Shown: positions 1,191 to 23,149 of the stretch, piece by piece | Position numbering within the stretch: the first letter of the stretch is position 1 | Layout of the letters: the number at the start of each line of letters is the position of its first letter | Source of the DNA: Oligoflexales bacterium | GTDB lineage: Bacteria > Bdellovibrionota_B > Oligoflexia > Oligoflexales > Oligoflexaceae | NCBI GenBank assembly: GCA_050251195.1 | Contig: JBFWNG010000013.1 | Span: forward strand, 15,331-79,330 | DNA: 64,000 bases | Direction: 5' to 3' | The notes under the pieces: model-generated | Databases searched by the model: none | The model's input: only the letters and a program-made list of their open reading frames with translations | What the model was told of the DNA's origin: nothing | Made by a program: the position numbers and the translations under genes

Positions 1191-2009
1191 ATGAAACTTG
1201 GGATTGTAAAACATTGTCTAATAGTAGGAGTGATCCCTTTCCTGATGTGGGCGTGTTCTTCAGACCCGCAAGCGACGCAATCTGCGCAGGGCGAAGTTGA
1301 ACCGTCAACGGAGGAAGGTGCCGCTGCACCTGACGATAGCGGTGCGCAAGGAGATGCTGCCGAAGGCGGAGGAGACAACTACGGAGGTGAAGGCGAAAAT
1401 AATTACGGTGCGAATTATTCTGACAACGCAGCTTCGAATGAAGCGGCAAACGAAAATAGTGAAGAAGGTGGCGAGGAAGTAAACAGCACAGGTGATGAAT
1501 TTGCGGCAGGAGGAAATTACGGCGTCAACAGTACCGCTAACGCAACTGCTAGTGGAAACGAAGCCGTGGACTTCAACAATCAAGGTTACAATGCTGGTTT
1601 GGCAGCAGGCGACCCGAGTGGCGAGGGCGTTAACAGCGCGCCTGCCGATCCGTATGCTGATCCCGGTGCAACTTCTGTTGGCTATAATGCTGCTCCTTAC
1701 AACGCTCCCGCGACCGACGCAGCCGTGCCTGCGGCGACTCCTACTCCGGATATGGCGGCCGCTGCAGTACCGGCAGCTCCTGCTACTTATCAAATGGGAG
1801 GCGTCGTTCGGTATGTTTTAGCAGGTGGTGTTGATCTATACAACGCCGCGGGGAGCGGCACGGTTGTTGGAAGACTCGAGCAAGGTGATCATCCCCTCGT
1901 ATGGGAAGAGAACCAATGGGCGCGAACTTCAGATGGCTTTTATGTTCCCTCGACCAATCTTACCGACAATGGGGTAGGTCGCGCGAAACAACCGGCGATT
2001 TGGCGCTAA
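1191..2009 (+). CDS. Lipoprotein with a low-complexity N/A/G/E-rich linker and a C-terminal bacterial SH3 (SH3b)-like domain
   Basis: AGGAGG lies 8 nt before the ATG. The signal peptide has lipobox L-M-W-A-C. The C-terminal VDLYNAAGSGTVVGRLEQGDHPLVWEENQWARTSDGFYVP fits the SH3_3 pattern. Confidence 0.7.
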   Translation: MKLGIVKHCLIVGVIPFLMWACSSDPQATQSAQGEVEPSTEEGAAAPDDSGAQGDAAEGGGDNYGGEGENNYGANYSDNAASNEAANENSEEGGEEVNSTGDEFAAGGNYGVNSTANATASGNEAVDFNNQGYNAGLAAGDPSGEGVNSAPADPYADPGATSVGYNAAPYNAPATDAAVPAATPTPDMAAAAVPAAPATYQMGGVVRYVLAGGVDLYNAAGSGTVVGRLEQGDHPLVWEENQWARTSDGFYVPSTNLTDNGVGRAKQPAIWR

Positions 2010-2058
2010 GTTTGCAAAAAGACCAAGCGGACTCGCTAATTTTAGGTTATAATACCCT

Positions 2059-3330
2059 ATGATGAAGATATTGAGCAGGCAGGTAGTTTTCCTTTTCCTC
2101 GTTTTTGTCTCCCTTCAGGGCTGTGACAAGCAGGAAATGGGCATTCAGAGTGCGAGCGTAGCGAAAGCTGACGATACTCCAGCCCCACCCAAAGATCCTC
2201 CGCTTGTCATTACCCAGCACATAATGAAAAGAGGAACAACCGCTTACGACGCCATACGGTCCACAGGGTTGCCTCCGAAAACTGTGTACGAACTCCTAAC
2301 TATCGCCAAAGACGTTTCCCCTTTAGACAATCTAAAGGAAGGTACTATTTTCAAGGCTCTTTGGTCTGACCAAAACCAATCCGAACTCAAAAAAATCGTG
2401 GTAGAAAGAACGCCTACGGAAGATCTGGTGTTCGAGACAAACGGATTGAATTGGTATGCTACAACAGTCAAACACCCAGAAACGGTGGAGGTTGTTACCT
2501 ACACTAATGAAGTGGAAAACAGCTTATGGGATTCCGCAAGCGAAGTAGGAATGGATCACGTGTTGATCACTCAACTCGCAGAAATCTTCGCTTGGCAAGT
2601 CGACTTTAACCGAGAAGTTCGGAGTGGTGACCGCTGGCGGATCGTTGTTGAGAAGAGGGTCGCCAAAGGCCGCCAAGTAGGTTGGGGCAATATCTTAGCC
2701 GCAGAATATGAAAACCTGGGAGAAGTTTTCCAGGCAATCCGATTCCCGCAACAAGGTAGTCCGGCTTCGTATTATGAAGCTGACGGCTCAAGCATGCGCA
2801 AAATGTTTCTCAAGAGCCCGATGCGGTTTGGTCGTATCACTTCTCCTTTTACTGGGAAGCGATTTCACCCTGTGCTGAAGTACTATAGGCCGCATAACGG
2901 CGTCGACTATGCCGCTCCTGTCGGTACTCCTATCATGGCTGTCGGCGGTGGCAAGATTGTGGAAATCGGAACTTACGGCGCCCAAGGAAAGAAGATCACA
3001 ATCCGACACAATTCCGTATACAAGACCTCCTATCTTCATATGAACGGCTTTGCAAAGGGTCTTAAGAACGGCGCTAAAGTGGAGCAGGGGCAGATCATTG
3101 GTTACGTTGGTACCACCGGCTTAACCACTGGACCGCATCTGCATTTTGCGTTCTTTGAAAGAGGAGTTTATGTGGATCCGCTTGGGATGAAGTTTCCTTC
3201 AGCAGATCCTGTTGATGAAGATAAAATAGAAGACTTCAGAAAAATTACAGCTGCTGTTCTTGCTCTGCTTCCGGACTGGAAGGTTGCGAGTAACGACCGT
3301 ATCGTGCCGCGAGTTTTGGCGCCGAATTAA
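2059..3330 (+). CDS. M23 family (LytM-type) metallopeptidase lipoprotein, MepM/NlpD-like
   Basis: Lipobox SLQGC. Catalytic motifs HNGVDYAAPVGTPIMAV and GTTGLTTGPHLHFAF are present. The N-terminal region is OapA/LysM-like. Confidence 0.9.
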   Translation: MMKILSRQVVFLFLVFVSLQGCDKQEMGIQSASVAKADDTPAPPKDPPLVITQHIMKRGTTAYDAIRSTGLPPKTVYELLTIAKDVSPLDNLKEGTIFKALWSDQNQSELKKIVVERTPTEDLVFETNGLNWYATTVKHPETVEVVTYTNEVENSLWDSASEVGMDHVLITQLAEIFAWQVDFNREVRSGDRWRIVVEKRVAKGRQVGWGNILAAEYENLGEVFQAIRFPQQGSPASYYEADGSSMRKMFLKSPMRFGRITSPFTGKRFHPVLKYYRPHNGVDYAAPVGTPIMAVGGGKIVEIGTYGAQGKKITIRHNSVYKTSYLHMNGFAKGLKNGAKVEQGQIIGYVGTTGLTTGPHLHFAFFERGVYVDPLGMKFPSADPVDEDKIEDFRKITAAVLALLPDWKVASNDRIVPRVLAPN

Positions 3331-3665
3331 TGCAAACACTTTTGTGCTGACATTTCATCTGACGATTTGTCAGTCGCGGATACGCGCGTCGTTTTGCGTT
3401 TAAAGATGCAATAGTTCGCAACGTCATAAGCGTAGGGGTAAAACGATTGACCATCTTCAAGATAGACGATGGGTCCGTAGGTTACGCTGTCAGACGGACA
3501 AGAAGTTAATTCCCAGCAATCTCTTCCCAATTGATTAAGGTATTCGACGCTCATAGTTTCGGGAGTATTTATCACCTTCAGATACTCCCAAGATTGCGCT
3601 TGACCCGTCATTGATATGGATAGAGCGGACATTGCAAGTAGTAGCTTAAGAACTTTGTGCTTCAT
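3327..3665 (-). CDS. Small secreted protein, DUF4177-like
   Basis: Signal peptide (ALSISMTGQAQS). WEY...YLNQLGRDCWEL...IFKRK resembles the DUF4177 pattern. Convergent with the M23 gene, overlapping it by 4 nt. Confidence 0.5.
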   Translation of the reverse strand: MKHKVLKLLLAMSALSISMTGQAQSWEYLKVINTPETMSVEYLNQLGRDCWELTSCPSDSVTYGPIVYLEDGQSFYPYAYDVANYCIFKRKTTRVSATDKSSDEMSAQKCLH

Positions 3666-3689
3666 GATTGCTCCGGTTTTTTAGTCTTA

Positions 3690-3723
3690 AATCGGTGCAG
3701 AGACTAAGATCTCTGCACCGATT
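3690..3723 (-). terminator. Hairpin downstream of the collagen-like gene (14-bp perfect stem, 6-nt loop)
   Basis: AATCGGTGCAGAGA (3690-3703) pairs with TCTCTGCACCGATT (3710-3723). On the minus strand it is followed by TTTAAGACTAAAAAA, a weak U-tract. Confidence 0.45.
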
Positions 3724-3729
3724 GCGTTG

Positions 3730-6570
3730 TTAACGTGTCTTTGGGTTGTTTGGCACTGTTGACGTTGGTGCGAACAGCGCGTTGCCTATTTTGAGCAGAT
3801 TGCCTTGCCAGCAGATGACTTGGGCTCCTGTGCAAGCCGGGATCGTGCCGCCAACGGAACCAATGTCGCTTGGGCCTGCAGGTCCTTGAGGTCCTGTTTC
3901 ACCTTGTGGTCCTCGCTCTCCTCGGTCGCCTTTCGGCCCTTGAGGTCCGGCTGGCCCAGCTGCACCTGTCTCACCGGCGACTCCTCGTTCACCTTTGTCG
4001 CCCTTGTCTCCTTTTGGACCTGGAACACCTTGAGGGCCAGCAGGTCCAATGTCGCCTTGCGCTCCTTTGACTCCTGCAGGTCCAACGTCGCCTTTTTCAC
4101 CCTTGGCTCCTTGTGGTCCCGCGTCGCCTTTAGCTCCTTGCAATCCGATGTCGCCTTTGTCGCCTTTAGCGCCGGCAGGTCCCGCGACTCCCCCAGGTCC
4201 TTGAGGTCCAGCAGCTCCTTGGTCACCCTTGTCGCCTTTTGGTCCCATTGCGCCCGCATCGCCTTTGAGGCCTTGTGGTCCAACTGCGCCCGTCGCGCCT
4301 TTTGGTCCAATCTCGCCTTGTTCACCTTTGTCGCCCTTTTCGCCTTTCAAACCTTGCGGTCCAGCATCGCCTTGATCGCCTTTAGGGCCTTGAGCTCCTT
4401 TAGCTCCCGCCGGGCCAACGTCACCCTTCAGTCCTTGCGGTCCTGCAGGTCCTGCGTCGCCTTTAGGACCCGCTGGTCCTACTTCGCCTTTCGGTCCTAT
4501 CGCGCCTTGAGGTCCAGCTTCACCGCGTTCGCCTTGAGGGCCGGCTTCGCCTTTTGGTCCTGCTGGACCAACTTCGCCTTTGTCACCCTTATCGCCCTTC
4601 ACACCTTGCTCGCCCTTTTCGCCCACTGGTCCTTTAGGTCCTTGAACTCCAGGGTCGCCTTTGGGCCCAACCTCGCCTTGCGGTCCGGTTTCGCCTTTGT
4701 CGCCTTTTTCGCCTTTTGGTCCTCTTTCGCCTTGCGGTCCTGGCGATCCGTCAGCACCGGGTATACCTTGCGTTCCAATCGGTCCGGTGGGCCCTTGAAT
4801 CCCTTGCGGTCCTCTAGGTCCGACATCGCCTTTTTCACCTTGTGGTCCGGTATCGCCTTTAGGGCCAATGTCGCCCTTGAGACCTTTTTGTCCTGGGGCT
4901 CCCGTGTCGCCTTTTGGTCCTGGGAGACCCTGTGCTCCCGCAGGTCCTTGAGGTCCCGAAGGTCCTTCCGGCCCAACGGCTCCTATTGGCCCTGCTTCCC
5001 CTTTTTCTCCCTTTTCGCCTTGCGGCCCGGCAGCGCCGACGTCACCTTTTTCACCTTTATCGCCTTGTGGGCCTTTAAGTCCTATATCGCCTTTTTCACC
5101 TTTTTCGCCTTGAGGACCTGCATCGCCTTTATCGCCTTTTTCACCTTTAGCACCTTGTGGTCCCACTTCGCCTTTTTCGCCTTGCGGTCCTTGAGGGCCA
5201 ATGGGTCCCACTTCGCCTTGCTCGCCTTTAGGTCCCGCAGGTCCTTTTTCCCCTTGCGGTCCATTTTCGCCCTGTGGTCCGCGTTCGCCCCTTGCTCCTT
5301 GCGGGCCTGCTTCGCCTTGCGGTCCTGCAGGTCCTATTTCACCTTTGTCGCCCTTTGGTCCATCTGGACCAGCCGGACCTTGTTGTCCTTTTTCACCTTG
5401 CGGCCCCCGTTCGCCTTGTGGGCCCTTCTCGCCTTGAGGTCCTCGCTCACCTTGCGGTCCGCGTTCGCCTTGCGGGCCGTTTTCACCTTTGTCGCCCTTT
5501 GGACCTGCGGGCCCCATTTCGCCTTTGTCACCCTTGGGTCCAACGTCGCCTTTGGGCCCTTGCTCACCCTGTGGTCCGCGTTCGCCCTTCGGGCCTATCG
5601 GTCCAACGTCGCCTTTAGGACCAACTTCGCCTTGTGGGCCTCGTTGCCCTGTTTGACCTTGAGGTCCGCGCGGTCCCTGAGGGCCCGCTAAACCTTGTAT
5701 ACCTTGCGGGCCGACTTCGCCCTGCATACCCAAATCACCTTTGTCACCTTTCGGTCCTGCAATACCTTGTGGTCCGCGGTCTCCGGCATCGCCCTTGTCT
5801 CCCTTAGGTCCTTGAGGGCCCAATTCACCTTGAGGTCCGCGCGGTCCTTGCGGTCCCATGGGGCCTTCTTTTCCGCCGCCGAAACCATTATAAATAGGAA
5901 CAATCTCTGTACGTCCCCCCGATGTTAGTTTTGCGCGGAGATCATTGAGAGGTTTTTCTTTCAGAGAATCAGGAACAGGAGCTTCGTCGCCAATGTAGAA
6001 TGCAAGTTTGCAAGTGTTGTCGACAATGACCTTGTGGATTTCTGGACCCCACAAAACTTTGGAACTGGCAGCGTCGACAATTTCTACTTTGTAGCTTTGT
6101 TGATTCCGGCACGTCACTGGACCACTGCCGCAGTCACAACTGCCTTTGACAAGGAGGCTTGCTTTACCTTGGTTCTGTTCAAACTTGTAGCCTTTGGCTT
6201 CGAGTTCTTCAAACCGGGCGTTTTCCACAATGCTTGGTTCGCCCGTATCGAGTTTGCCGTTTTGATTGAAGTCAATACCTAGGCTGACGCGGCCGTAATC
6301 TGGGTCGACGTCAACTTTGATGTCTCCTTTGATTCGTGTGCCGAATCGCGTCGCGAAAGACTTCAAATGGCTGATGTCAACGGATGGGTAAATTACCTCA
6401 CCCTCCTGCATGACGAGAATACGATATTGAAGATCATAGACGTCGAGGTCTTGAAATTCGTAATCAACCGAGAAACTCAGTTCGTCTGCAAGCACAGATT
6501 GCGAGCACAACATCGCGTACGCGAAAGCGCTCGCCGCAAAAAAATCATAAAGCCGCCTGAGATGTCGCAT
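3730..6570 (-). CDS. Secreted collagen-like (Gly-X-Y triple-helix repeat) protein, 946 aa
   Basis: Signal peptide, then a roughly 200-aa Cys-containing N-domain, then Gly at every third residue from aa 233 to 901, then a 46-aa C-terminal tail with two Cys. Confidence 0.9.
3868..5874 (-). repeat. Gly-X-Y coding repeat, about 223 triplets with no interruption found
   Basis: [15 protein letters not shown] triplets throughout. This periodicity also produces long stop-free antisense and off-frame ORFs in the track. Confidence 0.9.
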
Positions 6571-7008
6571 GAAAGCCGTCTCCTATCGTTCGAAAACTGA
6601 TTAAACTGCAAATGGAGGTACACATTTAGTCTAATGAAAAACCTTCTAAAAGCCTAGACGCGCAAGAAGGGCGGGCTAGGAAGAATGCTCCTATTGCTTC
6701 ACGAACAGAGATTTTTCGAATGGTTTTGGACAAATAGCGATATGTCAGAGCTGCTTAGATTAAGAAAAGATAAACTGACTCTAAACCCCTTAAAACATGA
6801 GTTCATTCATACGTCATTCTTACTTGCCCCATTGCAAAAAAATTACGCGGCGCAACTCCCGATAAAGGAAAGCAAAAGCCTAAGATTACTGGACAAATAA
6901 AAAAGTTCTTTGGGGATTTAACTTTTGTTTTTTTGATTCCGACAAACTGCCAGAGATAAACGGACCACAGGTAGTGGCCTTATTCACATTTTTAGTGGAA
7001 CAAAGACC

Positions 7009-9189
7009 ATGAAAAACATCTTTAAGCTTAAGACTCTTATTGCTACGTGTTTCATGTTTGTGAGCTGCGGCCGGGAAGCCGAGTTTGTCGATAACAAAGT
7101 CCCGGTTAAGGAGCTCACACCCGAGGAACAGGCCGACCTTGAGCGCTCGATTGCCAAAGACTTCACGGCAGGCAAAATCAATGATCAAAAAATCGACTTC
7201 GATACGGGATTCAATGCAATCACGCAGAAGCTGACCTTCACGACCGGCTTGCCTACGGAAGAAATGTTTTTCCAAACGACCAGAACGCCTGTTAAGGACG
7301 CCTTTGTCCAAGGTCATGTCGGTACTTCATTGACAGAAAACTTTGCGGTTAAAGAGAGGGGCTTACTCGACATCATTATCGTGATGGACAACTCTCATAG
7401 CATGTCGAGTATGCAGGCTAAGACCGCAAGCCAAATCGCCGGTTTGTTGGCAGAGATCAGGAACACCAATTGGCAAATTGGAGTGGTGACGACGGAATCC
7501 AGCCGACTGCGATCAGCTAAGACGAGCGCGGGCATGACGATAAATTATGTAACGAAGAAATTTTATGACGAGAATACGGTCGATGCGATGACGGCTTTTA
7601 GTGACATGCTCAACGCGGGCACAAGCGGGCACACGGTCGAACAAGGAATTTTTATGGCCCGCAAGGCGCTCGACGGCGAATGCTGGTATCTAGATCGCAA
7701 TACGCCAGACGGCAAGCAAGTGCGTTGCGATGCCGATGATGCCACCTGGCTTCGACCCGAAGCAAATAAAGCCGTTATCATTATTTCTGACGAGCGAAAC
7801 TGCGGCAGCATCGGTACAGGCGACCCGAATCCATGTGCGGGAAGGCCCGGCGAAACTGCCGATTACCTCCTCGACGGACTGCCGCTGACAACAGTTATTC
7901 ATGGTCTCTTGTTCTTGAAGAACGACGGGGAAGCTGCTGAAGATTACCGTACCGACACGCGATTTATTTGCGACCCGGATAAGACGGGCTCTAACGGCCA
8001 GCAAAGACCAGTTGAATATGAAAAAGCTATTGCAGCCCATGGCGGCGTGGTCGAGTATATCTGTAACGCTGACTATACCAGCATGTTGCGGAAAATATCG
8101 AGCAACATTAACGCGCACATCAGGAAGCAATACGAACTTACCTACACACCTGACCCTGGGTCTTTGGTTGTTAAAGTTGACGGAGTGGCGACAACGGATT
8201 TCGAAGTTAGAGGCAACATTCTTGAACTTAAAAGCGTGAGCGACGGTTCGACCAATCTCGACGTAAATTATAAGCATGGCGCCGTTCCCGTAGAGAAAAC
8301 CTTCGACCTTTCTACGCGCCCAGCCAGCGAGACGCTGCAAGTGACGATCAATGGTAGCCCGGCGAGCCCCATGAGTTTTAAACTCTTCGGACAAAAAGTT
8401 CAGTTCAACGATTATCCGCCGGAAAAAGCGACGATCGAAGTAAGTTATCGCAAAGACGAACCACTCATCGATAAAGTAACGACTTCGTCGCAGTTTGCGG
8501 ACCATACTATTAAGATATCCGTTGCTGACAAACCATTTTCTGATTACACCGCGGACGGCTCCACACGTCTCGTGCAGTTCACTAAAGTTCCCAAAGACGG
8601 GGATGCTATCGTGATCAGATATCTCAAACCGTCTGACTTGCAAACGCGATATCCCGTCAACGTTGACCATACGAAAATAGAGGGAGTAACGGTGGTTGAC
8701 GATGTTTCTGGGGGCGATATATCCGCCGTGATTGAGGGGACGGAGATTGTTTTCCCAATGGAAGCTGTTGTTAACGACAGAAAAGTATCTGTCAGTTACG
8801 ACATGCAGCATTTGGGTGATGAGTTGAAGTTTTCCGTACCCTTAGCGGTTCCAGTGCTGGACGAAAAGGTGGATGTGTTTGCGGACGGGGGGCAATCGCG
8901 TTGCCAAAACATTATCGAGCTAACGTCCGAAAAGATAGGCATCCAATGTGAAGATGATGACGTCAAATTGTTGTCCGTCGAATATCAATACGTTACTGAG
9001 TATACCAATACGTTCACGATGGAAGGCGAGTTTCTCGATAGAAAAGTTTGGACTGTATTCGTGAACGACAAACTTTATGAGAACTACACGCGAACAGAGA
9101 ATACAATCACTATACCGGAAGAAGACTTGCCGCTCGGCGCGCGAGTCAGAATTCTCGTTGAGCCGGCGCCCGAGAATATTCGGGAGTAA
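7009..9189 (+). CDS. Lipoprotein with an N-terminal von Willebrand factor A (VWA) domain with MIDAS motif and a long beta-rich C-terminal region
   Basis: Lipobox FVSCG. The DxSxS motif is in IIIVMDNSHSM, followed by NAGTSGHTVEQG and AVIIISDERN, the pattern typical of VWA MIDAS. Confidence 0.8.
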   Translation: MKNIFKLKTLIATCFMFVSCGREAEFVDNKVPVKELTPEEQADLERSIAKDFTAGKINDQKIDFDTGFNAITQKLTFTTGLPTEEMFFQTTRTPVKDAFVQGHVGTSLTENFAVKERGLLDIIIVMDNSHSMSSMQAKTASQIAGLLAEIRNTNWQIGVVTTESSRLRSAKTSAGMTINYVTKKFYDENTVDAMTAFSDMLNAGTSGHTVEQGIFMARKALDGECWYLDRNTPDGKQVRCDADDATWLRPEANKAVIIISDERNCGSIGTGDPNPCAGRPGETADYLLDGLPLTTVIHGLLFLKNDGEAAEDYRTDTRFICDPDKTGSNGQQRPVEYEKAIAAHGGVVEYICNADYTSMLRKISSNINAHIRKQYELTYTPDPGSLVVKVDGVATTDFEVRGNILELKSVSDGSTNLDVNYKHGAVPVEKTFDLSTRPASETLQVTINGSPASPMSFKLFGQKVQFNDYPPEKATIEVSYRKDEPLIDKVTTSSQFADHTIKISVADKPFSDYTADGSTRLVQFTKVPKDGDAIVIRYLKPSDLQTRYPVNVDHTKIEGVTVVDDVSGGDISAVIEGTEIVFPMEAVVNDRKVSVSYDMQHLGDELKFSVPLAVPVLDEKVDVFADGGQSRCQNIIELTSEKIGIQCEDDDVKLLSVEYQYVTEYTNTFTMEGEFLDRKVWTVFVNDKLYENYTRTENTITIPEEDLPLGARVRILVEPAPENIRE

Positions 9190-9217
9190 TCGACGAGATC
9201 CTTCACCTACGTTGATT

Positions 9218-9243
9218 AACCGTGACGCTTAGGCGTCACGGTT
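9218..9243. terminator. Hairpin between convergent genes (11-bp stem, 4-nt loop)
   Basis: AACCGTGACGC-TTAG-GCGTCACGGTT, followed by TTCACTTATTT on the plus strand. It lies between the stops at 9189 (+) and 9248 (-). Confidence 0.5.
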
Positions 9244-9247
9244 TCAC

Positions 9248-10411
9248 TTATTTCGGGGGATTCGCGGGTTCTTTACATTTCTCTAACTGGCTCTGAAGAC
9301 AGAACGGGATAACAAGGATCTTTTCTTCTCCAGCAAATGGATCTGAGTAAATTGGATCGCATTTCTTGTGCTTGTATTTCTTTTTCTTATTATACTTCTT
9401 GTTGAAGTCGTCTTCGTCTTTATACTTATCCTTATATTTGTCCTTATTGAAGTCGTCTTCGTCTTTATACTTATCCTTGTATTTGTCGTTATTGAAGTCA
9501 TCATCGTCTTCGTCTTTATACTTATCCTTGTATTTGTCCTTATTGAAGTCGTCTTCGTCCTTATACTTATCCTTGTCCTTGTATTTGTCGTTATTGAAGT
9601 CGTCATCGTCTTCGTCTTTGTATTTATCGCCATGGAAGTCGTCGTCGTCTTTATATTTATCATTCATAAAGTCGTCGTCGCCGTCCTTATAGGTATCGTC
9701 GGTATAGTAATCATGATTGTCGCCATGGTCACCGTCTTCATCTTCATAGCAATAGTCTTCGTCGTAGTCCTTGTCTTTGTCCTTGTCGTATTTGTGATCT
9801 TTATCTTTGTATTTATCCTTATTGAAATCCTCGTCACTGTCATTTTCTTGATCGATCAAGAGCTGTGCGCTTTCTTCGTCGGTAACAATGCGTCCCGTTG
9901 GAAAGACTTCGATGGGGACGGGGCCGCAAGGCTTCAAGTCGACAATCTTTTCGCCCTTGCGTTGTTTGAATACAAAACTAACGTCGAGATGAATTCCTTC
10001 TCTAAACGAATCGAGCCGCATTTCCACGTTGGAGTAATCGTCGAAGTTACGGTTAAAGAATCCGGTGGACGTAAAAAGATTGAGTTGCGGATCGTAATGG
10101 ACGCGATGCGGAAAAGTTGGCGTCAAATTGTGCCCGTTGCCGTTAAGTCCTTCGACCGGCATCACAAAGTCCGTGTTCGGGATGAGATGTTTATTGAGTA
10201 TCAGGGTGATGCACGGATGGAACTTTGCAACGTAGACGCCGATTTGAGGCAGCTCGGCAATATAGTTATCTGGAATCTCGTTGGGATTGTTGGGAACGAA
10301 GCTGTTATTAGGCTCTGCAGGTTTGATAACCGTGTTGTTTTTCTCTTTGGTGCAGGAGAAGGTAAGACTGCAAGCTACTAATAACCCTGAAATTATGACT
10401 TTTCGTGACAT
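9248..10411 (-). CDS. Lipoprotein with a C-terminal Asp/Lys/Tyr-rich tandem-repeat region
   Basis: Lipobox LTFSC. The first ~170 aa after the signal/lipobox peptide have normal composition. About 200 aa then consist almost only of D, K, Y, E, N and F, with repeats of FNKDKYKDKYKDEDD. The C-terminal tail contains Cys. Confidence 0.75.
   Translation of the reverse strand: MSRKVIISGLLVACSLTFSCTKEKNNTVIKPAEPNNSFVPNNPNEIPDNYIAELPQIGVYVAKFHPCITLILNKHLIPNTDFVMPVEGLNGNGHNLTPTFPHRVHYDPQLNLFTSTGFFNRNFDDYSNVEMRLDSFREGIHLDVSFVFKQRKGEKIVDLKPCGPVPIEVFPTGRIVTDEESAQLLIDQENDSDEDFNKDKYKDKDHKYDKDKDKDYDEDYCYEDEDGDHGDNHDYYTDDTYKDGDDDFMNDKYKDDDDFHGDKYKDEDDDDFNNDKYKDKDKYKDEDDFNKDKYKDKYKDEDDDDFNNDKYKDKYKDEDDFNKDKYKDKYKDEDDFNKKYNKKKKYKHKKCDPIYSDPFAGEEKILVIPFCLQSQLEKCKEPANPPK
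9402..9690 (-). repeat. Tandem coding repeats of 45/51 bp
   Basis: Units start at 9402, 9447, 9492, 9543 and 9594 (TTGAAGTCGTCTTCGTCTTTATACTTATCCTT...). The first four are near-identical and later ones are degenerate. Confidence 0.85.
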
Positions 10412-12749: not shown

Positions 12750-13652
12750 CTAGTCTAAGTCCCTTCGAGCGCGGTAAGTGGCCGATAGTTCTAGCCCCGG
12801 TGTCGGGATTAAGTTGAGTGGTTTTTCTTGTGGTTTTGGCAAGTTGAGATCCGAAGCGAGCCCCAACGCGCGCATGAGCTGGATGACGAGAAACGTTAGA
12901 TCGAGCTCCCACCAGCGCAAACCGTGGCGCGCAAGTTTAGGCGCCGCGTGATGATTGTTGTGCCAGCCTTCGCCTAGAGCGAATATTCCGACCCACCACA
13001 GATTGGTAGCGAGATCGTCCTTCAGCTTGTGGGTGCGGTATCCCCATTTATGAGTGGCGCTGTTGACGGCCCAGGTGATGTGATAAACTGCCACTAAGCG
13101 TACAAAGACCCCCCAGACTACTCCGGGCCATCCGGCAGCTAGGTACATGAGTATGCCGATAAGGATCTGAACCGCAACGACGACAAGCGGATTGCTTATA
13201 AAGACGAGGAAAGGATCGCGGTGGAGGTCTCTGGTAAATGCTCGAATCTGCTTTAAATCGTCAAACTGCGGACGCTTTACGGTCATCCAAAGAAGATGGC
13301 TGTGCCAAAAGCCCTTGCTGGCGTCATGCGGATCCCCAATGGTATCGGAGTGCGCATGATGCATGCGGTGGTGCCCCACCCATTCTATAAGTGTACCTTG
13401 CATCGCCGTCGTGCCAAGCACGGCGAGAGCATATTCCACAGGTTTGGGCGCGCGAAACGCCTTATGTGTAAAATACCGGTGAAATCCGAGAGTAATGCCA
13501 AGGGCAGTAAAAAAATACAGAACGCCAAACCATATAAATGCTTCCGTTGAGTAGTACCATACTCCAAAACAGGCACCAGAATGGATAAGCAGCATGCTAA
13601 TAATAGTAAACCAGGCATACTTTTGGACGCTGCCGTTTTTCGCCGAACTCAT
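12750..13652 (-). CDS. Acyl-CoA/acyl-lipid delta-9 fatty acid desaturase
   Basis: Three His boxes are present: HRYFTH, HRMHHAHSD and GEGWHNNHH. The protein is membrane-spanning. Confidence 0.9.
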   Translation of the reverse strand: MSSAKNGSVQKYAWFTIISMLLIHSGACFGVWYYSTEAFIWFGVLYFFTALGITLGFHRYFTHKAFRAPKPVEYALAVLGTTAMQGTLIEWVGHHRMHHAHSDTIGDPHDASKGFWHSHLLWMTVKRPQFDDLKQIRAFTRDLHRDPFLVFISNPLVVVAVQILIGILMYLAAGWPGVVWGVFVRLVAVYHITWAVNSATHKWGYRTHKLKDDLATNLWWVGIFALGEGWHNNHHAAPKLARHGLRWWELDLTFLVIQLMRALGLASDLNLPKPQEKPLNLIPTPGLELSATYRARRDLD

Positions 13653-16356: not shown

Positions 16357-18672
16357 CTACAATCTCGACTTTTTCAAATAAGTCAGGTGCTTCAGGCGTC
16401 GAATGATGACTTCCAAAGGCAAAAAGGCAAAAAGTGCGTAAATCCAACCTGAGTCTAACATCCAGTAATAGTTCTTCGCAGAATTGACTTGCGGGGGAAG
16501 CAGGGTGCTCATTTCGTCCGAAACGCTTCGCAACCAGTCATCAACGGCCGCAAAACCGTCAGGTTCGGGAAAGAAGAGCGGCGCTCCGGTGAGCTGGCCC
16601 AGTTGTTTGAGTTTTATTGTCGAAAAAGGTACGTCGGAATCTTTGTAGGTATTGGGGATGACGCCATAGAGACTTGCCCTTACGGAACCGAACGCCTTAT
16701 GGTCAGCCGCGAAATCCACCTCGCAAAGAGAGCTTCCGTTTTTAGGCTTTGGCGCTTTTCCTGAAACGCGTCCCAAGATGTCGCTTTTGAGTTCGAGTAC
16801 AAGATCTTTCGCAGGGATTTCTTCCCCGCACACTCTAAGATGCCACGATTTTTCTTTCGCCAAATATTTGAGGGCTGGTCCTTGCATAAACATTTCAAAC
16901 GAAAGCGTCGAAGCGGAGTCGGGAACTAAGCTGAGGTTTTTGAGCATGATTGGCTTATTGATTTCCTCTCGAAGGAGCCATGAAATGGTCTTTGAGAAGA
17001 GCGCCGTATAAGCCGACTTAGACGATACTTGATCGGGATTAAGAGAAAGATTCCATAAATTGTCGGAAAAAAGCCACACGGCTCTTCCTTTGTCCGGGTA
17101 AGACGCTATAGCAAGCGGGAGCGACCCTCCGTTGTCAAGCTGCGCATTGAGTAACGGAGTGTACCCTCCCGGTTTGAGTTCGACATTTTCCATATGATGT
17201 ATGCCGCTCATCTTCTTTTGCGAAGCGAGAGCCGGCTCTAGTATTTCGACGTCGTCGAAAATGCTTGCGAGCGCCCGTTCGTCCGGAGAAGGCTTGGCGA
17301 GATTGATTTGGTAGTTTAAGTTTTCGTCGTAATACGGTCCCTTGAGATCGAGCGTGTCTCTTTGCAAGGCTCCCAAAAAGTTTTGGTCAGCCGGCAAAGA
17401 ACGCGGGCCCGAAGGACTATTGAAGGGAATTATTTCCGCGAGAGGTGATCCAATATAGTCACCTGGTTTGAGGGCGCGTGGTCCCCCCATGAAAAGAAGG
17501 CCTCCGCCGTTCTTGACAAAGTTCACTAGATTTTGCTGGTACTCGGGTTCGAGGAATTGATAAAGAGCAAAATTTTGCAGAATGATTACTTTGAAGTTGG
17601 TCAATTCCTGCGTGAAGAGCCGGTGCACTGGAAAAGGTATTAAGCTAAGTTCTCTTTCATTCACAAGTTGCAGATCCCCGGGATCGCGCAGGATGAAAAA
17701 ACTGATGAGGTCGTACTTTGGCTCCGACTTGAGGTAGCGGCGTAAGAATCGTCCGTCCCAACTTGGGGCGCCAAGAAGATGAAGAATTCCTATCGTGTTC
17801 GGAAGAACCTCGACGCCCTTGTGCTTTATGTTGTCCCACACGACGGTTTCGAGATTAGTCGGCAAAGCTTTTACCGTGAGCAGATGTTGACCCTTTGCAA
17901 GACCGGGAATGGCGATACCAACTTCCAGTCGGTTTTCGCCCTGATTAAATGTGGTGTTGAGTGTCGTAAGTACCGTTGGTCCCGATAAAACCTGAAGCTG
18001 GACGGTCTCTTCGCTGAGGTCAAAAGACTCCCGATTTACCGATACTTCGAGATTAAGGGTTTTGTCAGCGAATGAGAACAACGGTCTGTCCGGAATCTCG
18101 ATCCAGATATTATGGAAGCGCTGCGGCTTCAGGCCAATTATCGCCCCGCGGGTCTTTTGTTGAGACGTGACGGCTATGTTCTCCAACGCATCGTCCCAAG
18201 GAATGTCTGGGCGAAAATCGCCGCCGTCCGTAATGATCATCCACGGTTCATTACCCGCGGAGTAGAGCCACGGCTTTAAGATCGCGCTAAGCGGGGTATA
18301 GCCGTTCTCCACTTCGTCGCTTAACTCGCTTAGAAGGGTCTTCTTGGTGTAGCAACCTAGGTCAAGGCATTCTTCATTGATCCGCTTTAAGGTAGCGTCA
18401 ACTTGGTTGGTAAAGGATGTTCCCTCGTTTTCATTGGTCACGCTTTTGGAGTCGTCGACGAGCACATGAATAGGGTTGCGAGCCAAGCTTCGGGGGCCGC
18501 TTTCTGTCACCGTTCGCGGAAATGCTGCCAGTATAAGAGGTGCGATCCACCCGATACGGCAGAGAGCGGACAGCGCACCCCGGATCACACCCAGTTCATA
18601 GCACCATGATATGGACAGCAAGACAAAACTGCCAAACGCGAACCACAGCAGAAGTTGTAAATAATCTGTCAT
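16357..18672 (-). CDS. Membrane protein with a VWA-like domain (BatB-like) and a GATase1-like region
   Basis: N- and C-terminal TM segments. DxSxS in HVLVDDSKSV and IITDGGD. GGGLLFMGGPRAL is typical of the last gene in MoxR/Bat-type operons. The start overlaps the upstream gene by 4 nt. Confidence 0.7.
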   Translation of the reverse strand: MTDYLQLLLWFAFGSFVLLSISWCYELGVIRGALSALCRIGWIAPLILAAFPRTVTESGPRSLARNPIHVLVDDSKSVTNENEGTSFTNQVDATLKRINEECLDLGCYTKKTLLSELSDEVENGYTPLSAILKPWLYSAGNEPWMIITDGGDFRPDIPWDDALENIAVTSQQKTRGAIIGLKPQRFHNIWIEIPDRPLFSFADKTLNLEVSVNRESFDLSEETVQLQVLSGPTVLTTLNTTFNQGENRLEVGIAIPGLAKGQHLLTVKALPTNLETVVWDNIKHKGVEVLPNTIGILHLLGAPSWDGRFLRRYLKSEPKYDLISFFILRDPGDLQLVNERELSLIPFPVHRLFTQELTNFKVIILQNFALYQFLEPEYQQNLVNFVKNGGGLLFMGGPRALKPGDYIGSPLAEIIPFNSPSGPRSLPADQNFLGALQRDTLDLKGPYYDENLNYQINLAKPSPDERALASIFDDVEILEPALASQKKMSGIHHMENVELKPGGYTPLLNAQLDNGGSLPLAIASYPDKGRAVWLFSDNLWNLSLNPDQVSSKSAYTALFSKTISWLLREEINKPIMLKNLSLVPDSASTLSFEMFMQGPALKYLAKEKSWHLRVCGEEIPAKDLVLELKSDILGRVSGKAPKPKNGSSLCEVDFAADHKAFGSVRASLYGVIPNTYKDSDVPFSTIKLKQLGQLTGAPLFFPEPDGFAAVDDWLRSVSDEMSTLLPPQVNSAKNYYWMLDSGWIYALFAFLPLEVIIRRLKHLTYLKKSRL

Positions 18673-21206: not shown

Positions 21207-21212
21207 GTGCTC

Positions 21213-22112
21213 TTACCCAGCTTCAAGATAGAAAGTCACAACTTTATGAAAGTACGATATGGGCGAGTTGTCGGTGAGAAAGACGTAGTCGCTGCCTACT
21301 TTTCGAAGGCTACCCGTAAGCTTGTGTTTCCATTTCTCAAGCTCAGATTTATAAAATCCGTTGTGCTTAAGAGCGCTTCCCAAATACTCTTTTCGATCTC
21401 GTTCATAGTCGAAGTAACAGATTTCGTCTTGCGTCCACTCTATTTCATCCTCAAGCGATGAAAGAATATGAATGAAAATTTTTCGTCTGCTTGTGGAGAA
21501 GAAAGCCGGCAGGTTGTCGTTCAAGGCGTCAGACAAGAAATAGACCATATCGGGACGGCCAAGTCTCAGAGGATCAAAAGCTTGCACAAAACCGGTATGT
21601 TCAAGATCGAACGCATTCTTGGTTAGGTGTTCAAAAATTTGGAGGACATCGCTCGAAGAAGATGCGATAAGCTTCTGCATCCCTTGTGCTCCGGCAGCGT
21701 TCTTGGTGAGAACGATGTTTACGCGGTCCCCTGATTTAAGGTGAAAGTAGCAAAGATTGAGCGCAAGTCTCGTCGCAATTTCACGCTTCGTCGGCGTCGC
21801 ATTGGCAAGTTCCATGCTGGGCACGGGCCAATTCATCGTATCAGACCAGTCAATTCCGATAACGACGTTTGCTCGAGCGTTATCTCTCTTCTCTCGCACA
21901 ATGGCTTGATCGGTACGCGCAAACACTTTCCAGTCGATCAGTCGAGGCGGATCTCCCGGCATATACTGTCTGCTAAAAGCAGGGAATCGATCGGGTTTTC
22001 TCATCTTTAAAAAGAAGCTGCCGTGATGGACGGGAGTATTCTTGGTTCCGATGCCCTCCGGATCCACGGCGTCCACGGGTCTGAGATTGCGCAAAGTGCC
22101 CTTAGGATTCAT
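21213..22112 (-). CDS. DUF58 domain protein (MoxR-associated)
   Basis: Its position between MoxR and the VWA proteins and its ~300-aa size fit the family. The start overlaps the moxR stop by 4 nt. Confidence 0.75.
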   Translation of the reverse strand: MNPKGTLRNLRPVDAVDPEGIGTKNTPVHHGSFFLKMRKPDRFPAFSRQYMPGDPPRLIDWKVFARTDQAIVREKRDNARANVVIGIDWSDTMNWPVPSMELANATPTKREIATRLALNLCYFHLKSGDRVNIVLTKNAAGAQGMQKLIASSSSDVLQIFEHLTKNAFDLEHTGFVQAFDPLRLGRPDMVYFLSDALNDNLPAFFSTSRRKIFIHILSSLEDEIEWTQDEICYFDYERDRKEYLGSALKHNGFYKSELEKWKHKLTGSLRKVGSDYVFLTDNSPISYFHKVVTFYLEAG

Positions 22113-23149
22113 GCAATTCCCTTGGCGATGAAATCGTATTTTTCGACGATCTGTCCAAGAAGTCGATCCACAAGCGAATCCTCGGTGTAACCGTTGTTGA
22201 CGCCCTCGGGAGTAAGTCGTAGGCGATGGCGCAATACAGGCTTTGCAAGTCGCTCAATATGTTTCCATCGAACTGTTTCTGACTTGTCGATCAGAGCCAT
22301 TGCCTTTGCCGTCGACACTAAGCTTATTCCTGCTCTCGGGCCAGCGCCGTACCATATGCAGGGTTTGATTTCTTCAGGGCAGCTGGCGTCTGTTGGACGG
22401 GTGGATCGCACAAGGTCACGGACGACATGCAACAGTTCGTCGGCGATGGAAATCTGCCGACATGTCGCAACCAATTGCAGAGTGTCTTCCAATGTCAGAA
22501 TCGGTTTGAGCTCCGGTTTTGCCTGAAATTCTCCAGCGAGCCTATTGGAGTTGTGAGCGATCAATATTCTGTCTTCAGCCGCAGCGTCGGGATAGTCTAC
22601 GAGAGAGTGCAGCATGAAGCGGTCAAGTTGGGCTTCAGGTAGAGGAAATGTTCCCTCGGACTCAAATGGGTTTTGAGTGGCAAAGACCATGAAAGGCTGC
22701 GGAAGCTTGTGGGTAATACCGTTGACAGTGCAGTTCTTTTCTTGCATTGCCTCGAGCAAAGCCGATTGTGTCCTTGGCGACGCTCGGTTTATCTCGTCCG
22801 CGAGCATCAAGTTCGTGAACACGGGCCCCTTCGAAAAATCGAAACTACGCTTTCCCGAAACGGCGTCGAGGTTCAGAATATCCGTTCCGATAATGTCAGA
22901 AGGCAACAAATCGGGAGTAAACTGCACGCGACCGAACTGGAGTCCAAGAGATTGTGAAAATATCCGGACAAGCGTGGTCTTCGCGAGACCGGGAGCGCCC
23001 GTGATAAGAATATGCCCTTCAACGAGAAAGCAACACAGCGCTTCGTCGACGAGGTGCTTCTGGCCGAAAATCTGTGTGTTTATTTGCTGCCTCAGTTTGT
23101 CGGCAAGATCCGCACAAGCGGTAAAACCATATTCGGATGCATGGCTCAT
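22109..23149 (-). CDS. MoxR-family AAA+ ATPase
   Basis: Walker A ITGAPGLAKT, Walker B LMLADEINRA, and the characteristic VFATQNP motif. Confidence 0.9.
   Translation of the reverse strand: MSHASEYGFTACADLADKLRQQINTQIFGQKHLVDEALCCFLVEGHILITGAPGLAKTTLVRIFSQSLGLQFGRVQFTPDLLPSDIIGTDILNLDAVSGKRSFDFSKGPVFTNLMLADEINRASPRTQSALLEAMQEKNCTVNGITHKLPQPFMVFATQNPFESEGTFPLPEAQLDRFMLHSLVDYPDAAAEDRILIAHNSNRLAGEFQAKPELKPILTLEDTLQLVATCRQISIADELLHVVRDLVRSTRPTDASCPEEIKPCIWYGAGPRAGISLVSTAKAMALIDKSETVRWKHIERLAKPVLRHRLRLTPEGVNNGYTEDSLVDRLLGQIVEKYDFIAKGIA

Follow-up and report, generated by a model that had tools for sequence, protein, structure and literature searches.

Two bacterial proteins, Bd0875 of Bdellovibrio and CglD of Myxococcus, are the closest characterised relatives of the lipoprotein considered here, and for both of them a role as a surface MIDAS adhesin has been shown experimentally or proposed (PMC11003981; 10.1101/2023.10.19.562135). 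In both cases the targets are external substrates and not a cognate bacterial fibre (PMC11003981; 10.1101/2023.10.19.562135). Bd0875 was described as having a VWA domain inserted in a beta-sandwich (PMC11003981), which is the same topology as the one modelled for our protein. We have analysed a window of 64,000 nucleotides from an Oligoflexales MAG, in which a distant relative of Bd0875 and CglD is encoded next to a collagen-like protein. The comparison of related loci points to a previously undescribed bacterial fibre-and-receptor pair, and we consider the chances about even that these genes form a conserved two-gene adhesion module of the Oligoflexia (phylum Bdellovibrionota).

The gene of the VWA/MIDAS lipoprotein occupies positions 7009–9189 of the forward strand, including the stop codon, and its product of 726 aa is 100% identical to the NCBI entry 'hypothetical protein AB7T49_18480 [Oligoflexales bacterium]'; about 70 full-length relatives are found in Oligoflexia. 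A lipobox, F17-V-S-C20 (7057–7068), can be read near the N-terminus. Of the six other rows of our alignment A1, five have a cysteine at the equivalent position and the remaining row, P0002, has no N-terminal region. In the AF2 model the beta strands of aa 48–113 (7150–7347; pLDDT about 90 for aa 80–110) and those of aa 373–423 together make up a hybrid-like beta-sandwich, in keeping with the Foldseek matches given below, and the VWA (beta-I-like) domain of aa 120–370 (7366–8118) is inserted into this sandwich. The remainder of the C-terminal beta-rich region (aa 373–720, 8125–9168), defined by AF2 secondary structure, is modelled as about three further beta-sandwich 'leg' domains, with pLDDT 75–93 for aa 380–540, and the length of this region is conserved across the family. 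The match to Pfam VWA_2 (E=8.4e-4, 20.4 bits) falls below the gathering score of 27; we assign the VWA domain from its conserved motifs, from the model and from Foldseek. The last of these matched the model, whose pLDDT is about 55 in the VWA part, with probability 1.00 to the VWA protein 4fx5, the integrin beta3 and beta1 headpieces and the SpaC tip pilin, so that by fold match the lipoprotein resembles the headpiece (I/hybrid) of integrin beta. The NCBIfam family of Bdellovibrio MIDAS adhesins, NF052240, is weakly but consistently matched by the window protein and its relatives, and the NCBIfam family of the gliding lipoprotein CglD, also weakly, by the relatives L009 and L037 only.

Six residues are invariant in 58 of 58 full-length family members: D127, S129 and S131 of the MIDAS motif D127-N-S129-H-S131 (7387–7401), E211 (7639–7641), and D261 and E262 (7789–7794), with which the IIISDE strand ends and which supply the MIDAS Asp. 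The first-pass annotation, made from the letters of the window, had proposed an intact-looking MIDAS built from the first motif, a GTSGHT element and IIISDE; the first and the last are borne out, but the Thr of GTSGHT (T205) is variable. Its place as metal ligand is probably taken, as the alignment suggests, by E211, the acidic residue in a G-x-x-G-x-x-x-E-x-G loop, which we liken to E220 of integrin beta3. The equivalent residue of Bd0875, E213, was mutated in the study of that protein (PMC11003981).

The collagen-like gene lies on the reverse strand (3730–6570, including the stop codon) and encodes a probably secreted protein of 946 aa, whose collagen-like label was confirmed by a match of 351 bits to Pfam Collagen (PF01391). 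A signal peptide is predicted at aa 1–28 (6487–6570), with likely cleavage at VLA/DE, from sequence reading, from the hydrophobic N-termini of homologues and from the AF2 model, in which a helix spans aa 2–21 and the first strand begins at aa 30. It is followed by a globular domain of two beta-sandwiches (aa 29–235, 5866–6486), modelled with pLDDT 88.4 and pTM 0.81, for which searches of PDB and BFVD returned nothing below E=0.01. The family of this N-domain comprises 46 representative clusters, and G-X-Y repeats follow the domain in all fetched members whose sequence reaches that far. Four cysteines (C145/C147/C154/C187) and a W174-G-x-E177 motif are conserved in the domain. The loop from D100 to E111 (6238–6273) has what we take to be an EF-hand- or dockerin-like pattern and is a candidate Ca2+ site; among the 25 sequences of alignment A3, D100 never varies and E111 hardly does. 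The collagen-like region (aa 236–901, 3868–5865) consists of 222 G-X-Y triplets without interruption, among them 40 GPQ, 22 GPK, 15 GDK, 15 GEK and 9 GER, which agrees with the about nine GER and many GEK triplets reported in the first-pass annotation; the nine GER are a mild excess over the 3.5 expected from the composition of the X and Y positions. A triple helix rises about 0.286 nm per residue, and the region would be about 190 nm long if it forms one. The protein ends in a short domain (aa 902–946, 3733–3867) that carries the motif IPAC...ICW-G-x-LKIGNA-F-P and shares 45% identity with the C-terminal end of the collagen-like protein at L088 (E=1e-9). The pattern C...C...G..L..G..F.P also occurs in P0019, P0022, P0023, P0025, P0029, P0037 and P0040, all of which carry an extra 90–150 aa that are absent from the window protein. 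On inspection the C-terminal sequence of the fibre displayed no visible membrane anchor and no LPXTG, so some partner would be needed to keep the fibre on the cell.

Could the neighbouring lipoprotein be this partner? We compared about 68 non-redundant full-length loci of the VWA family with flanks of up to 10 kb, about 2 Mb of DNA altogether. Collagen-like ORFs occurred only within 3.5 kb of a VWA gene and nowhere else, a 979-aa ORF of L070 with just 10 triplets not being counted as collagen-like. The VWA proteins linked to the homologous collagen-like genes form one clade (the window protein, L009, L001, L088, L089, L169 and L174) with a neighbour-joining bootstrap of 87/100 and subclades of 100 and 97, in which pairwise identity is 25–48%. 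For six of the seven, a homologous collagen-like gene lies no more than 3.5 kb away, and the contig of the seventh, L001, stops 123 bp upstream of the VWA gene. Judged by the alignments, these neighbours are true homologues which share more than repeats: the N-domain of the window fibre matches the L089 protein with E=3e-20, the full-length fibre aligns to the L009 protein from residue 1 with E=5e-22, and the homology of the three N-domains is also seen in a three-way alignment. The search from the fibre side gave a similar result. Two loci of the N-domain family, P0029 and P0025, extend far enough on the side in question, and each adjoins a VWA gene of the clade encoding about 710 aa (BLASTP 3e-60; tblastn 1.8e-63 and 2.5e-54). 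Synteny in relatives, on which the first-pass annotation had staked the pairing, was therefore found, and it is likely that the two genes act in one pathway as a functional pair. The divergent layout on which that annotation had remarked is not conserved, as orientation and spacing vary: the genes are divergent in the window, L169 and L174, convergent in L089, and separated by four genes in L009. Only L169 and L174 have a common layout. The clade also differs from other family members in the segment between strand beta2 and E211, which measures 46–65 aa compared with a median of 37, and this could be a clade-specific insertion facing the ligand.

It has to be considered whether such linkage is simply inherited synteny or chance between functionally unrelated genes. 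There are few independent lineages (the window, L009, L088/L089 and L169/L174, all uncultured assemblies), no VWA gene lies in the 7.4 kb upstream of the collagen-like gene of L172, the side visible there, and the positional statistic is weak by itself. The latter, P about 0.03 for five of five within 4 kb, is arithmetic from near-zone fractions; as the flanks ended at 10 kb, this enrichment is only modestly significant, and our case rests mainly on the analysis of the clade. There, no other gene common to the pair loci was found when L009, L088, L089 and L001 were compared with the window. Because neighbours are unshared and gene order and orientation vary, except between L169 and L174, selection on proximity is indicated rather than a retained ancestral block: at this level of divergence all other neighbours have been replaced and the pair itself rearranged in most loci, yet the two genes have stayed at most 3.5 kb apart. 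Besides, the sampled DNA has no collagen-like ORF in any other place, bar that of L070, and at L037 and L045 an unrelated type of collagen-like gene lies near a VWA gene from a different clade. We therefore regard an accidental or merely inherited association as improbable.

The same gene linkage would also be expected if the lipoprotein served the assembly, export or quality control of the fibre and were no surface receptor, for instance if it faced the periplasm from the outer membrane and caught the fibre, or joined it into trimers, as it is secreted. VWA/MIDAS domains also work in assembly and chaperone systems, a MoxR-DUF58 cluster is present in the same window (16360–23149), and a lipoprotein could face either the periplasm or the surface. 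However, Bd0875 and CglD are surface adhesins, the multi-domain leg suits projection from the surface, and most paralogues of the VWA family lie beside housekeeping genes, with no collagen-like gene next to them. Such a role has in our view only a slim chance of being the right one.

We hypothesize instead that the lipoprotein holds or recognises the fibre at the cell surface. The fibre would consist of a disulphide-containing head of two beta-sandwiches, a 222-triplet stalk forming a trimeric rod some 190 nm long and a short Cys-containing C-terminal knot, and the lipoprotein, seated in the outer membrane, would present an integrin-beta-like headpiece with its invariant MIDAS (DxSxS...E...DE) on the leg. 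Export, trimerisation and an outer-membrane or surface location of the module are our inference. An acidic side chain on the fibre might be coordinated by a cation bound at the MIDAS, and the two proteins together could form an adhesive appendage of long reach whose attachment point depends on metal and is sensitive to force. A direct, MIDAS-dependent contact between fibre and lipoprotein is a real possibility, though we rate it somewhat under even. More doubtful is the contact point. The first-pass annotation had suggested that a collagen Glu completes the metal coordination, as in GFOGER. Many members of the fibre family contain no GER at all and neither GER nor GEK triplets are conserved, so chemistry of the GFOGER type has no comparative support, and we think it rather unlikely that the contact is made by a Glu inside the triple helix.

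The same lack of conserved GER also fits the view that the two proteins are parallel adhesins of one pathway which never touch each other. The fibre would then make the first contact, at long range, with the substrate, prey or host, the lipoprotein would afterwards bind another ligand of the target from close by, in the way proposed for Bd0875, and the linkage would reflect co-regulation only. Conserved linkage suits co-regulation no less than binding, the targets of Bd0875 and CglD are external, and the LRR (internalin-like) proteins whose genes separate the pair at L169 and L174 suggest a general locus for interaction with host or prey. On the other hand, a shared transcript is impossible in most loci, where the genes are divergent, convergent or four genes apart, so co-transcription does not explain the linkage, and the fibre would be left with no visible anchor of its own. 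We consider this possible but less probable than direct contact.

The pair had at first been read as part of a wider island of six envelope genes serving adhesion or attack on the cell wall. Six ORFs do lie where the first-pass annotation had placed them, the other four being gene 1 (1191–2009, forward), gene 2 (2059–3330, forward), gene 3, for a 112-aa protein (3327–3665, reverse), and gene 6 (9248–10411, reverse). All six N-termini look exported at the level of patterns, with lipobox-like motifs in gene 1 (LMWAC), gene 2 (SLQGC), the VWA gene, which is gene 5 (FVSC), and gene 6 (LVAC), while the products of genes 3 and 4 begin with stretches that resemble signal peptides. By a crude rule, however, 17 of the 50 ORFs of the window look exported; because this is about a third, the run of six is only weakly unusual, its chance somewhere in the window being a few per cent by arithmetic from that rate. 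Gene 2 does encode a genuine M23 peptidoglycan endopeptidase domain (PF01551, 1.4e-27, plus Csd3_N2), but the protein is of the ShyC/MepM-like housekeeping type. Neither the label 'SH3b' for gene 1 nor 'DUF4177-like' for gene 3 was supported: there was no Pfam hit at E<=10, and searching PDB by sequence brought up nothing significant. The six genes alternate between strands, the four extra genes are absent beside the pair in L009, L088, L089 and L001, and the gene calls of L169 and L174 include no such neighbours. Because these four genes are never co-conserved with the pair, the island dissolves, and nothing here speaks for a module that attacks cell walls; by this comparison they are ordinary neighbours, and a common function of all six is very improbable. 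The 438-bp divergent spacer between the collagen-like and VWA genes (6571–7008) had been delimited correctly. A scan for sigma-70-like promoters gave none inside it, the sole promoter-like site (7151–7178) lying within the VWA gene, and the sole terminator-like site is at 6963–6979, neither being in excess over shuffled sequences. The repeats noted in gene 6, the D/K/Y lipoprotein gene, are present as tandem repeats of 51 and 96 nt.

The conserved unit in this region is, judging from gene order in the relatives, the pair formed by the collagen-like gene (3730-6570, minus strand) and the gene of a VWA/MIDAS lipoprotein (7009-9189, plus strand), and not the six-gene envelope island (1191-10411) of the first-pass annotation: no further module genes, whether M23, 'SH3b', 112-aa, D/K/Y-repeat lipoprotein or others, are common to the pair loci. 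The first five database homologues of the VWA protein were without a collagen neighbour; after 160 more loci, collagen-like ORFs had been found in six fetched loci and in the window, and in the loci L009, L037, L045, L088 and L089 such an ORF lies no more than 3.5 kb from a full-length gene of the VWA family. A 979-aa ORF in L070, with just 10 triplets, was not counted as collagen-like, and no collagen-like ORFs were found elsewhere in the ~2 Mb of fetched DNA. The positional enrichment calculated from the flanks alone, by arithmetic from near-zone fractions, is weakly significant (P ~0.03) and is not relied on here. An NJ tree places the VWA proteins of the window, L009, L001, L088 and L089 together in a single clade. 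By a reverse search from the collagen side, the contigs of two collagen-family proteins, P0029 and P0025, were found to hold a VWA gene of ~710 aa as well (BLASTP 3e-60; tblastn 1.8e-63 and 2.5e-54), and the products of these genes join the same clade (bootstrap 87/100, subclades 100 and 97). The proposed pairing was thus recovered from both sides, with a collagen-like gene nearby in six of the seven clade members (window, L009, L001, L088, L089, L169 and L174); the seventh, L001, lies 123 bp from the end of its contig. The partner collagen-like genes also have non-repeat domains in common with the window protein, whose N-domain matches the L089 collagen-like protein at E=3e-20, whose full length aligns to the L009 protein from residue 1 (E=5e-22) and whose C-terminal motif is found in L088 (E=1e-9). 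At L172, one of the collagen-family loci, the 7.4 kb upstream, the only side visible, contain no VWA gene, and four other collagen-family loci were left out of the pairing test, their sequence being too short to judge.

How the two genes lie to each other varies between most pair loci. In the window they diverge across the 438-bp spacer that had been described, around which a promoter and terminator scan was uninformative. In L009 the collagen gene lies 3.5 kb downstream with four genes in between; in L088 the order is collagen gene, 224-aa gene and VWA gene on one strand; in L089 the pair is convergent with one intervening gene; and in L169 and L174 the VWA gene diverges from a gene for an LRR protein, which precedes the collagen gene. 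Could the pairing be pure synteny, the genes being neighbours by inherited order only? Every relative comes from an uncultured assembly, and few of the lineages are independent. The clade members are only 25-48% identical to each other, and a proximity that was kept at this distance through repeated local rearrangement argues for a functional link between the fibre and VWA genes, so that we regard pure synteny as the less likely reading. It is quite probable, in our judgement, that the fibre and the lipoprotein act in the same pathway. Most VWA paralogues outside the clade adjoin housekeeping genes (the recurrent neighbours of the other paralogue groups are, by Pfam, uridine kinase, PPTase, LPG synthase, a hydrolase and PEPCK), and therefore no general rule of 'VWA plus fibre' holds for the whole family. 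No integrase or phage genes occur among the annotated neighbours examined, and nothing among them suggests that the pair is mobile.

Several pair loci hold additional genes. Directly upstream of the VWA gene, L088 (1271-1945) and L089 (1992-2669) share a conserved lipoprotein-like gene of ~225 aa (27% identity, E=9e-31) to which no Pfam family matches and which the window lacks; that it might be a homologue of the collagen N-domain was ruled out (BLASTP E=2.3). In L089 the VWA gene (2758-5007) is broken into two ORFs, 2758-4605 and 4627-5007, and the collagen-like gene on this contig has an unrelated C-terminus; a frameshift, a pseudogene or an assembly error could account for this. The proteins encoded between the VWA and collagen-like genes in L169 (2419-3588) and L174 (7378-8616) are internalin-like leucine-rich-repeat proteins (LRR_4, 5e-35 and 8e-39), which may point to a broader locus for interaction with hosts or prey in that subclade. 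In two Oligoflexus-type MAGs (L037:9689-13951 and L045:640-4806), a VWA lipoprotein of another clade is followed by two genes on the same strand. The first encodes ~295 aa that weakly resemble fibrinogen-C (PF00147, E=0.0011, motif DMETDGGGWTL) and the second a short secreted collagen-like protein of a different type, without the N-domain of the window protein; as a pair they look like a ficolin divided between two genes, beside a MIDAS lipoprotein.

The fibre protein of the window is collagen-like as had been claimed, with a Pfam Collagen match (PF01391, 351 bits) and 222 consecutive G-X-Y triplets at aa 236-901, among which GER occurs 9 times and GEK 15 times; the commonest triplets are GPQ (40) and GPK (22). 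It thus has the uninterrupted repeat of bacterial collagen-like proteins (PF01391), long enough for a triple helix, and may form a trimeric fibre, whose predicted length is ~190 nm. A word-indexed search for homologues, run with the N-terminal 230 aa, gave no match, and an exhaustive HMMER search with the N-domain gave 46 representative clusters at 50% identity, 18 of them at E<=1e-10. The fetched members of this family run on into G-X-Y repeats wherever they are long enough, and the stalk of the window protein is by far the longest (222-223 triplets vs 8-123). Many members have a 'G-S-x-D-I/V' junction directly after the helix and a C-terminal domain marked by IPxC...C..G..L..G..F.P; of this domain only the first 45 aa (3733-3867) remain in the window protein. 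The L088 fibre likewise ends ~45 aa past the helix; most members (P0019, P0022, P0023, P0025, P0029 and others) carry 90-150 aa of extra C-terminal domain ending in ...VRI..GKIQEWH... The model of the N-domain, built on a 25-sequence alignment, consists of two beta-sandwiches (pLDDT 88.4, pTM 0.81), and Foldseek found no match for this confident model in PDB or BFVD below E=0.01, so that neither a fold family nor a phage origin can be assigned. Conserved residues of this domain are C145, C147, C154 and C187 and the motif W174-G-x-E177. Its loop D100-x-N-x-N-G-x-x-D-x-x-E111 (6238-6273, minus strand), with D100 invariant and E111 nearly so in the family, fits the EF-hand/dockerin pattern, and by pattern recognition only we take it to be a putative Ca2+-binding site; the L089 counterpart reads D-L-N-G-N-G-R-V-D-T-N-D. 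The C-terminus of the window protein (DIGSVGG...NNPKTR) has no LPXTG and no visible membrane anchor.

The 726-aa VWA protein is 100% identical to NCBI 'hypothetical protein AB7T49_18480 [Oligoflexales bacterium]'. Homologue searches together with scans of genome and metagenome contigs yielded ~70 full-length relatives, and nearly all of those with a taxonomic label are Oligoflexia (Pseudobacteriovorax, Oligoflexus and Oligoflexales MAGs), whose genomes often hold several paralogues of the family. Its Pfam scores are below the thresholds (VWA_2 20.4 vs 27 bits; VWA 15 vs 23.8) and a PDB sequence search gave nothing meaningful, but the metal site noted in the first-pass annotation is mostly real: the protein carries D127-N-S-H-S131 and IIISD261E262, and D127, S129, S131, E211, D261 and E262 are invariant in all sequences of a 58-sequence alignment. 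A MIDAS consists of DxSxS, a distal Thr or Glu and an Asp, which are here supplied by D127, S129, S131, E211 and D261. Of the element GTSGHT, which had been counted as part of the site, the Thr residues vary across the same alignment. The protein begins with a lipobox (FVSC, aa 17-20). In its AlphaFold model (mean pLDDT 66) the VWA domain, residues 120-370, sits between beta strands 48-113 and 373-423, with more beta-sandwich domains up to residue 720; the flanking beta domains reach 85-93 and the VWA core ~55. A profile search with the alignment of VWA relatives added only four proteins, so the alignment was not deepened and this part stays at that value. Foldseek gave probability 1.00, for a VWA region of pLDDT only ~55, to the VWA protein 4fx5, to many integrin beta headpieces, in which the beta-I domain interrupts the hybrid domain, and to the SpaC tip pilin, in keeping with the Rossmann-like VWA fold. 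On these grounds the protein appears to be a divergent member of the VWA/MIDAS superfamily.

It was natural to compare this protein with the MIDAS lipoproteins of predatory bacteria. Bd0875 of Bdellovibrio starts with a lipobox, and its N- and C-terminal segments build a small beta domain into which the MIDAS domain is inserted; its MIDAS, of DxSxS plus Glu, is reported to be required for prey invasion (PMC11003981). Like Bd0875 and Bd1483 (NF052240), the window protein comes from the phylum Bdellovibrionota, to which the Oligoflexales belong through the class Oligoflexia, and it combines a lipobox with a VWA domain that, in its own model, is inserted between beta segments. It matches NF052240 ('MIDAS family adhesin') weakly but reproducibly, at 62.5 bits vs a cut-off of 700, as do five relatives at 33-90 bits. 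At this distance from the cut-off it is not an equivalog of Bd0875; nor is it one of CglD. Unlike the two-domain, L-shaped Bd0875 of ~380 aa (the NF052240 profile has 378 positions), it has 726 aa, with ~300 additional C-terminal residues of beta-sandwich. No collagen-like partner is reported for Bd0875, and the word 'collagen' is absent from PMC11003981. In Myxococcus xanthus, CglD is described as a beta-integrin-like gliding lipoprotein of the outer membrane, exposed at the surface (10.1101/2023.10.19.562135), and CglB as an alpha-I-like adhesin that is likewise a surface-exposed outer-membrane lipoprotein (PMC9946355); the MIDAS-bearing VWA/beta-I domains of both were matched to integrin beta3 (10.1101/2023.10.19.562135; PMC9946355). 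The CglD model (NF033765) does not match the window protein, and the relatives L009 and L037 reach 26-29 bits over ~75 residues of the VWA core vs a cut-off of 400. CglD, which acts together with the Glt gliding machinery, contains COMP-like Ca2+ repeats along with Cys-rich modules of EGF type, whereas neither such modules nor Glt genes are seen here; 'collagen' does not occur in the CglD preprint either (10.1101/2023.10.19.562135). Topology, Foldseek and the weak NCBIfam matches together place the window protein, as a divergent and longer member, among the MIDAS lipoprotein adhesins of integrin-beta type that predatory bacteria and their kin possess.

The likeness to integrins themselves lies in the fold and topology, which match the beta I plus hybrid domains, in the invariant MIDAS and in the collagen-like protein as a genomically linked candidate ligand. 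Unlike integrins, the lipoprotein is without alpha subunit, transmembrane segment and cytoplasmic tail, and the sequence identity is only 11-16%. In integrins the alpha2 I domain binds GFOGER and the beta-I domain RGD/LDV. Gram-positive pilus tip adhesins offer a second comparison: SpaC of L. rhamnosus (PDB 6m48), which was among the top Foldseek matches, has its VWA/MIDAS domain inserted in a beta-sandwich stalk, and RrgA and GBS104 also have an inserted VWA domain. Such pilins are sortase-assembled, with isopeptide bonds and LPXTG, while the window protein has a lipobox of Gram-negative type and there are no pilus genes here. Some VWA pilus tip adhesins bind collagen, in their case that of the host; the candidate here is self-encoded.

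On the fibre side, the window protein shares with Scl1/Scl2 of Streptococcus, Lcl of Legionella, BclA of the Bacillus exosporium and Bucl8 of Burkholderia a signal peptide, a non-collagen head, a charged Pro-rich G-X-Y stalk and a terminal domain. The Scl models NF038329 and NF038330 score 578 and 424 bits, above their cut-offs, with the best stretches within the repeat region, and the Lcl model NF046116 scores 513.6 bits vs a cut-off of 500, with its best stretch at aa 377-569, again within the repeats. Unlike Scl1/Scl2, the window fibre has no LPXTG, and its N-domain is in a different family from the streptococcal V domain; its 45-aa C-terminus seems too short to hold the GAG-binding C-domain of Lcl. 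Since the Scl and Lcl matches are confined to the repeats and the N-domain forms a family of its own, we take both terminal domains to be probably unrelated to those of the proteins named. BclA, whose anchoring needs a separate basal-layer protein, provides an analogy for a fibre without an anchor. In the literature searched we found no conserved VWA-lipoprotein partner for any of these proteins, and full-text searches returned no description of a conserved collagen-like/VWA-lipoprotein pair and nothing relevant on collagen-like proteins in Oligoflexia or Bdellovibrio. Both components are thus of known kinds, a MIDAS/VWA lipoprotein adhesin and a bacterial collagen-like protein; with NF052240 and CglD scores far below the cut-offs and neither LPXTG nor an apparent Scl or Lcl terminal domain, both would nevertheless seem to fall outside the characterised families.

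What might the lipoprotein do for the fibre? The most economical mechanism is that it tethers or recognises the fibre through a MIDAS-bound cation. We favour it because the lipoprotein is an integrin-beta-like MIDAS adhesin and the fibre itself lacks a visible anchor, and because the segment from beta2 to E211, the part of the fold that carries the specificity-determining loop in integrin beta subunits, is longer in the collagen-linked clade (46-65 aa vs a median of 37 in paralogues). The chief alternative would have the two proteins act side by side, as parallel adhesins in a single attachment pathway, which would keep their genes together just as well. An assembly factor, too, might be kept beside its fibre gene; this role we find less likely for a lipoprotein with adhesin features. 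Direct binding of the fibre by the lipoprotein is proposed here only tentatively. If there is such binding, which residue would complete the metal site? The first-pass annotation pointed to the Glu of GER triplets. We no longer regard GER as a conserved motif for the ligand, since it is missing from many family members, and the integrin GxxGER motif is not conserved in the family. A Glu within the triple helix is an improbable MIDAS ligand for this reason, and also because charged triplets are common in bacterial collagens generally. Perhaps the conserved acidic residue right after the helix, at the S-x-D-I/V junction, or the acidic loop of the N-domain could serve instead; both suggestions are speculative.

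The key part that integrin-like MIDAS lipoproteins play in the adhesion of predatory bacteria has been recognised only lately (Bd0875 in Bdellovibrio; in Myxococcus, CglB and CglD), and we know of no ligands for them. The functions and anchoring of Gram-negative collagen-like proteins are likewise, to our knowledge, poorly understood. Through the conserved pairing each protein becomes a concrete candidate partner of the other: the fibre as ligand of a bacterial integrin-like receptor, the lipoprotein as anchor of a bacterial collagen-like fibre. If binding through the MIDAS were true, bacteria would have their own counterpart of integrin-collagen adhesion, a prokaryotic receptor-ligand pair with the chemistry of metazoan integrin and matrix, of independent origin or deep shared ancestry, and this would bear on the evolution of this chemistry and on the attachment of Oligoflexia to prey, hosts or surfaces; Pseudobacteriovorax is listed from gorgonian-associated MAGs. 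That Oligoflexia encode a self-contained adhesion system of integrin-like receptor and collagen-like ligand is an attractive but doubtful extension. Two uncharacterised families are newly delimited by this work: the collagen-like proteins with the distinctive N-domain of two beta-sandwiches, and the VWA lipoproteins of ~700 aa with several paralogues per Oligoflexia genome.

As for the remaining genes of the proposed island, all six ORFs are present where the first-pass annotation had placed them. They lie on alternating strands (+ + - - + -), so co-transcription is conceivable at most between neighbouring genes on the same strand. Exported-looking products, by a crude rule of hydrophobicity, charge and lipobox, are encoded by 17 of the 50 ORFs in the window, which makes a run of six only mildly unexpected. 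The second gene (2059-3330, plus strand) is indeed an M23 gene (PF01551, 1.4e-27, plus Csd3_N2), whose best NCBIfam models, all below their equivalog cut-offs, are the housekeeping peptidoglycan endopeptidases ShyC, ShyA and MepM. Two labels fell away: the 'SH3b' gene (1191-2009, plus strand) has no Pfam family at E<=10 and its C-terminal 80 aa have no PDB sequence match, and the 'DUF4177' gene (3327-3665, minus strand) has neither PF13783 nor any other Pfam family at E<=10, its sole matches being weak ones to Sp36 (E=0.0015) and, in a PDB sequence search, Rv0899 (E=0.036). The acidic and basic repeats of the D/K/Y lipoprotein (9248-10411, minus strand) were borne out. Tandem repeats of 51 and 96 nt (9408-9680, 82-91% matches) encode the FNKDKYKDKYKDEDD-type repeats of this 387-aa protein, for which neither Pfam nor NCBIfam gives a match and which lacks a homologue next to the pair in the other loci.

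Two further observations concern the surroundings of the VWA gene. At 16360-23149 on the minus strand, 7 kb from it, lies a Bat/MoxR-like cluster of genes for a MoxR-type AAA_3 ATPase (3.5e-60), a DUF58 protein, an 845-aa protein with DUF4159 and a 771-aa protein without a Pfam match; MoxR systems usually work with VWA proteins. A fatty-acid desaturase gene is found near a VWA-family paralogue both in the window (12750-13652) and in the unrelated locus L005 (8741-9718), which is probably a coincidence.
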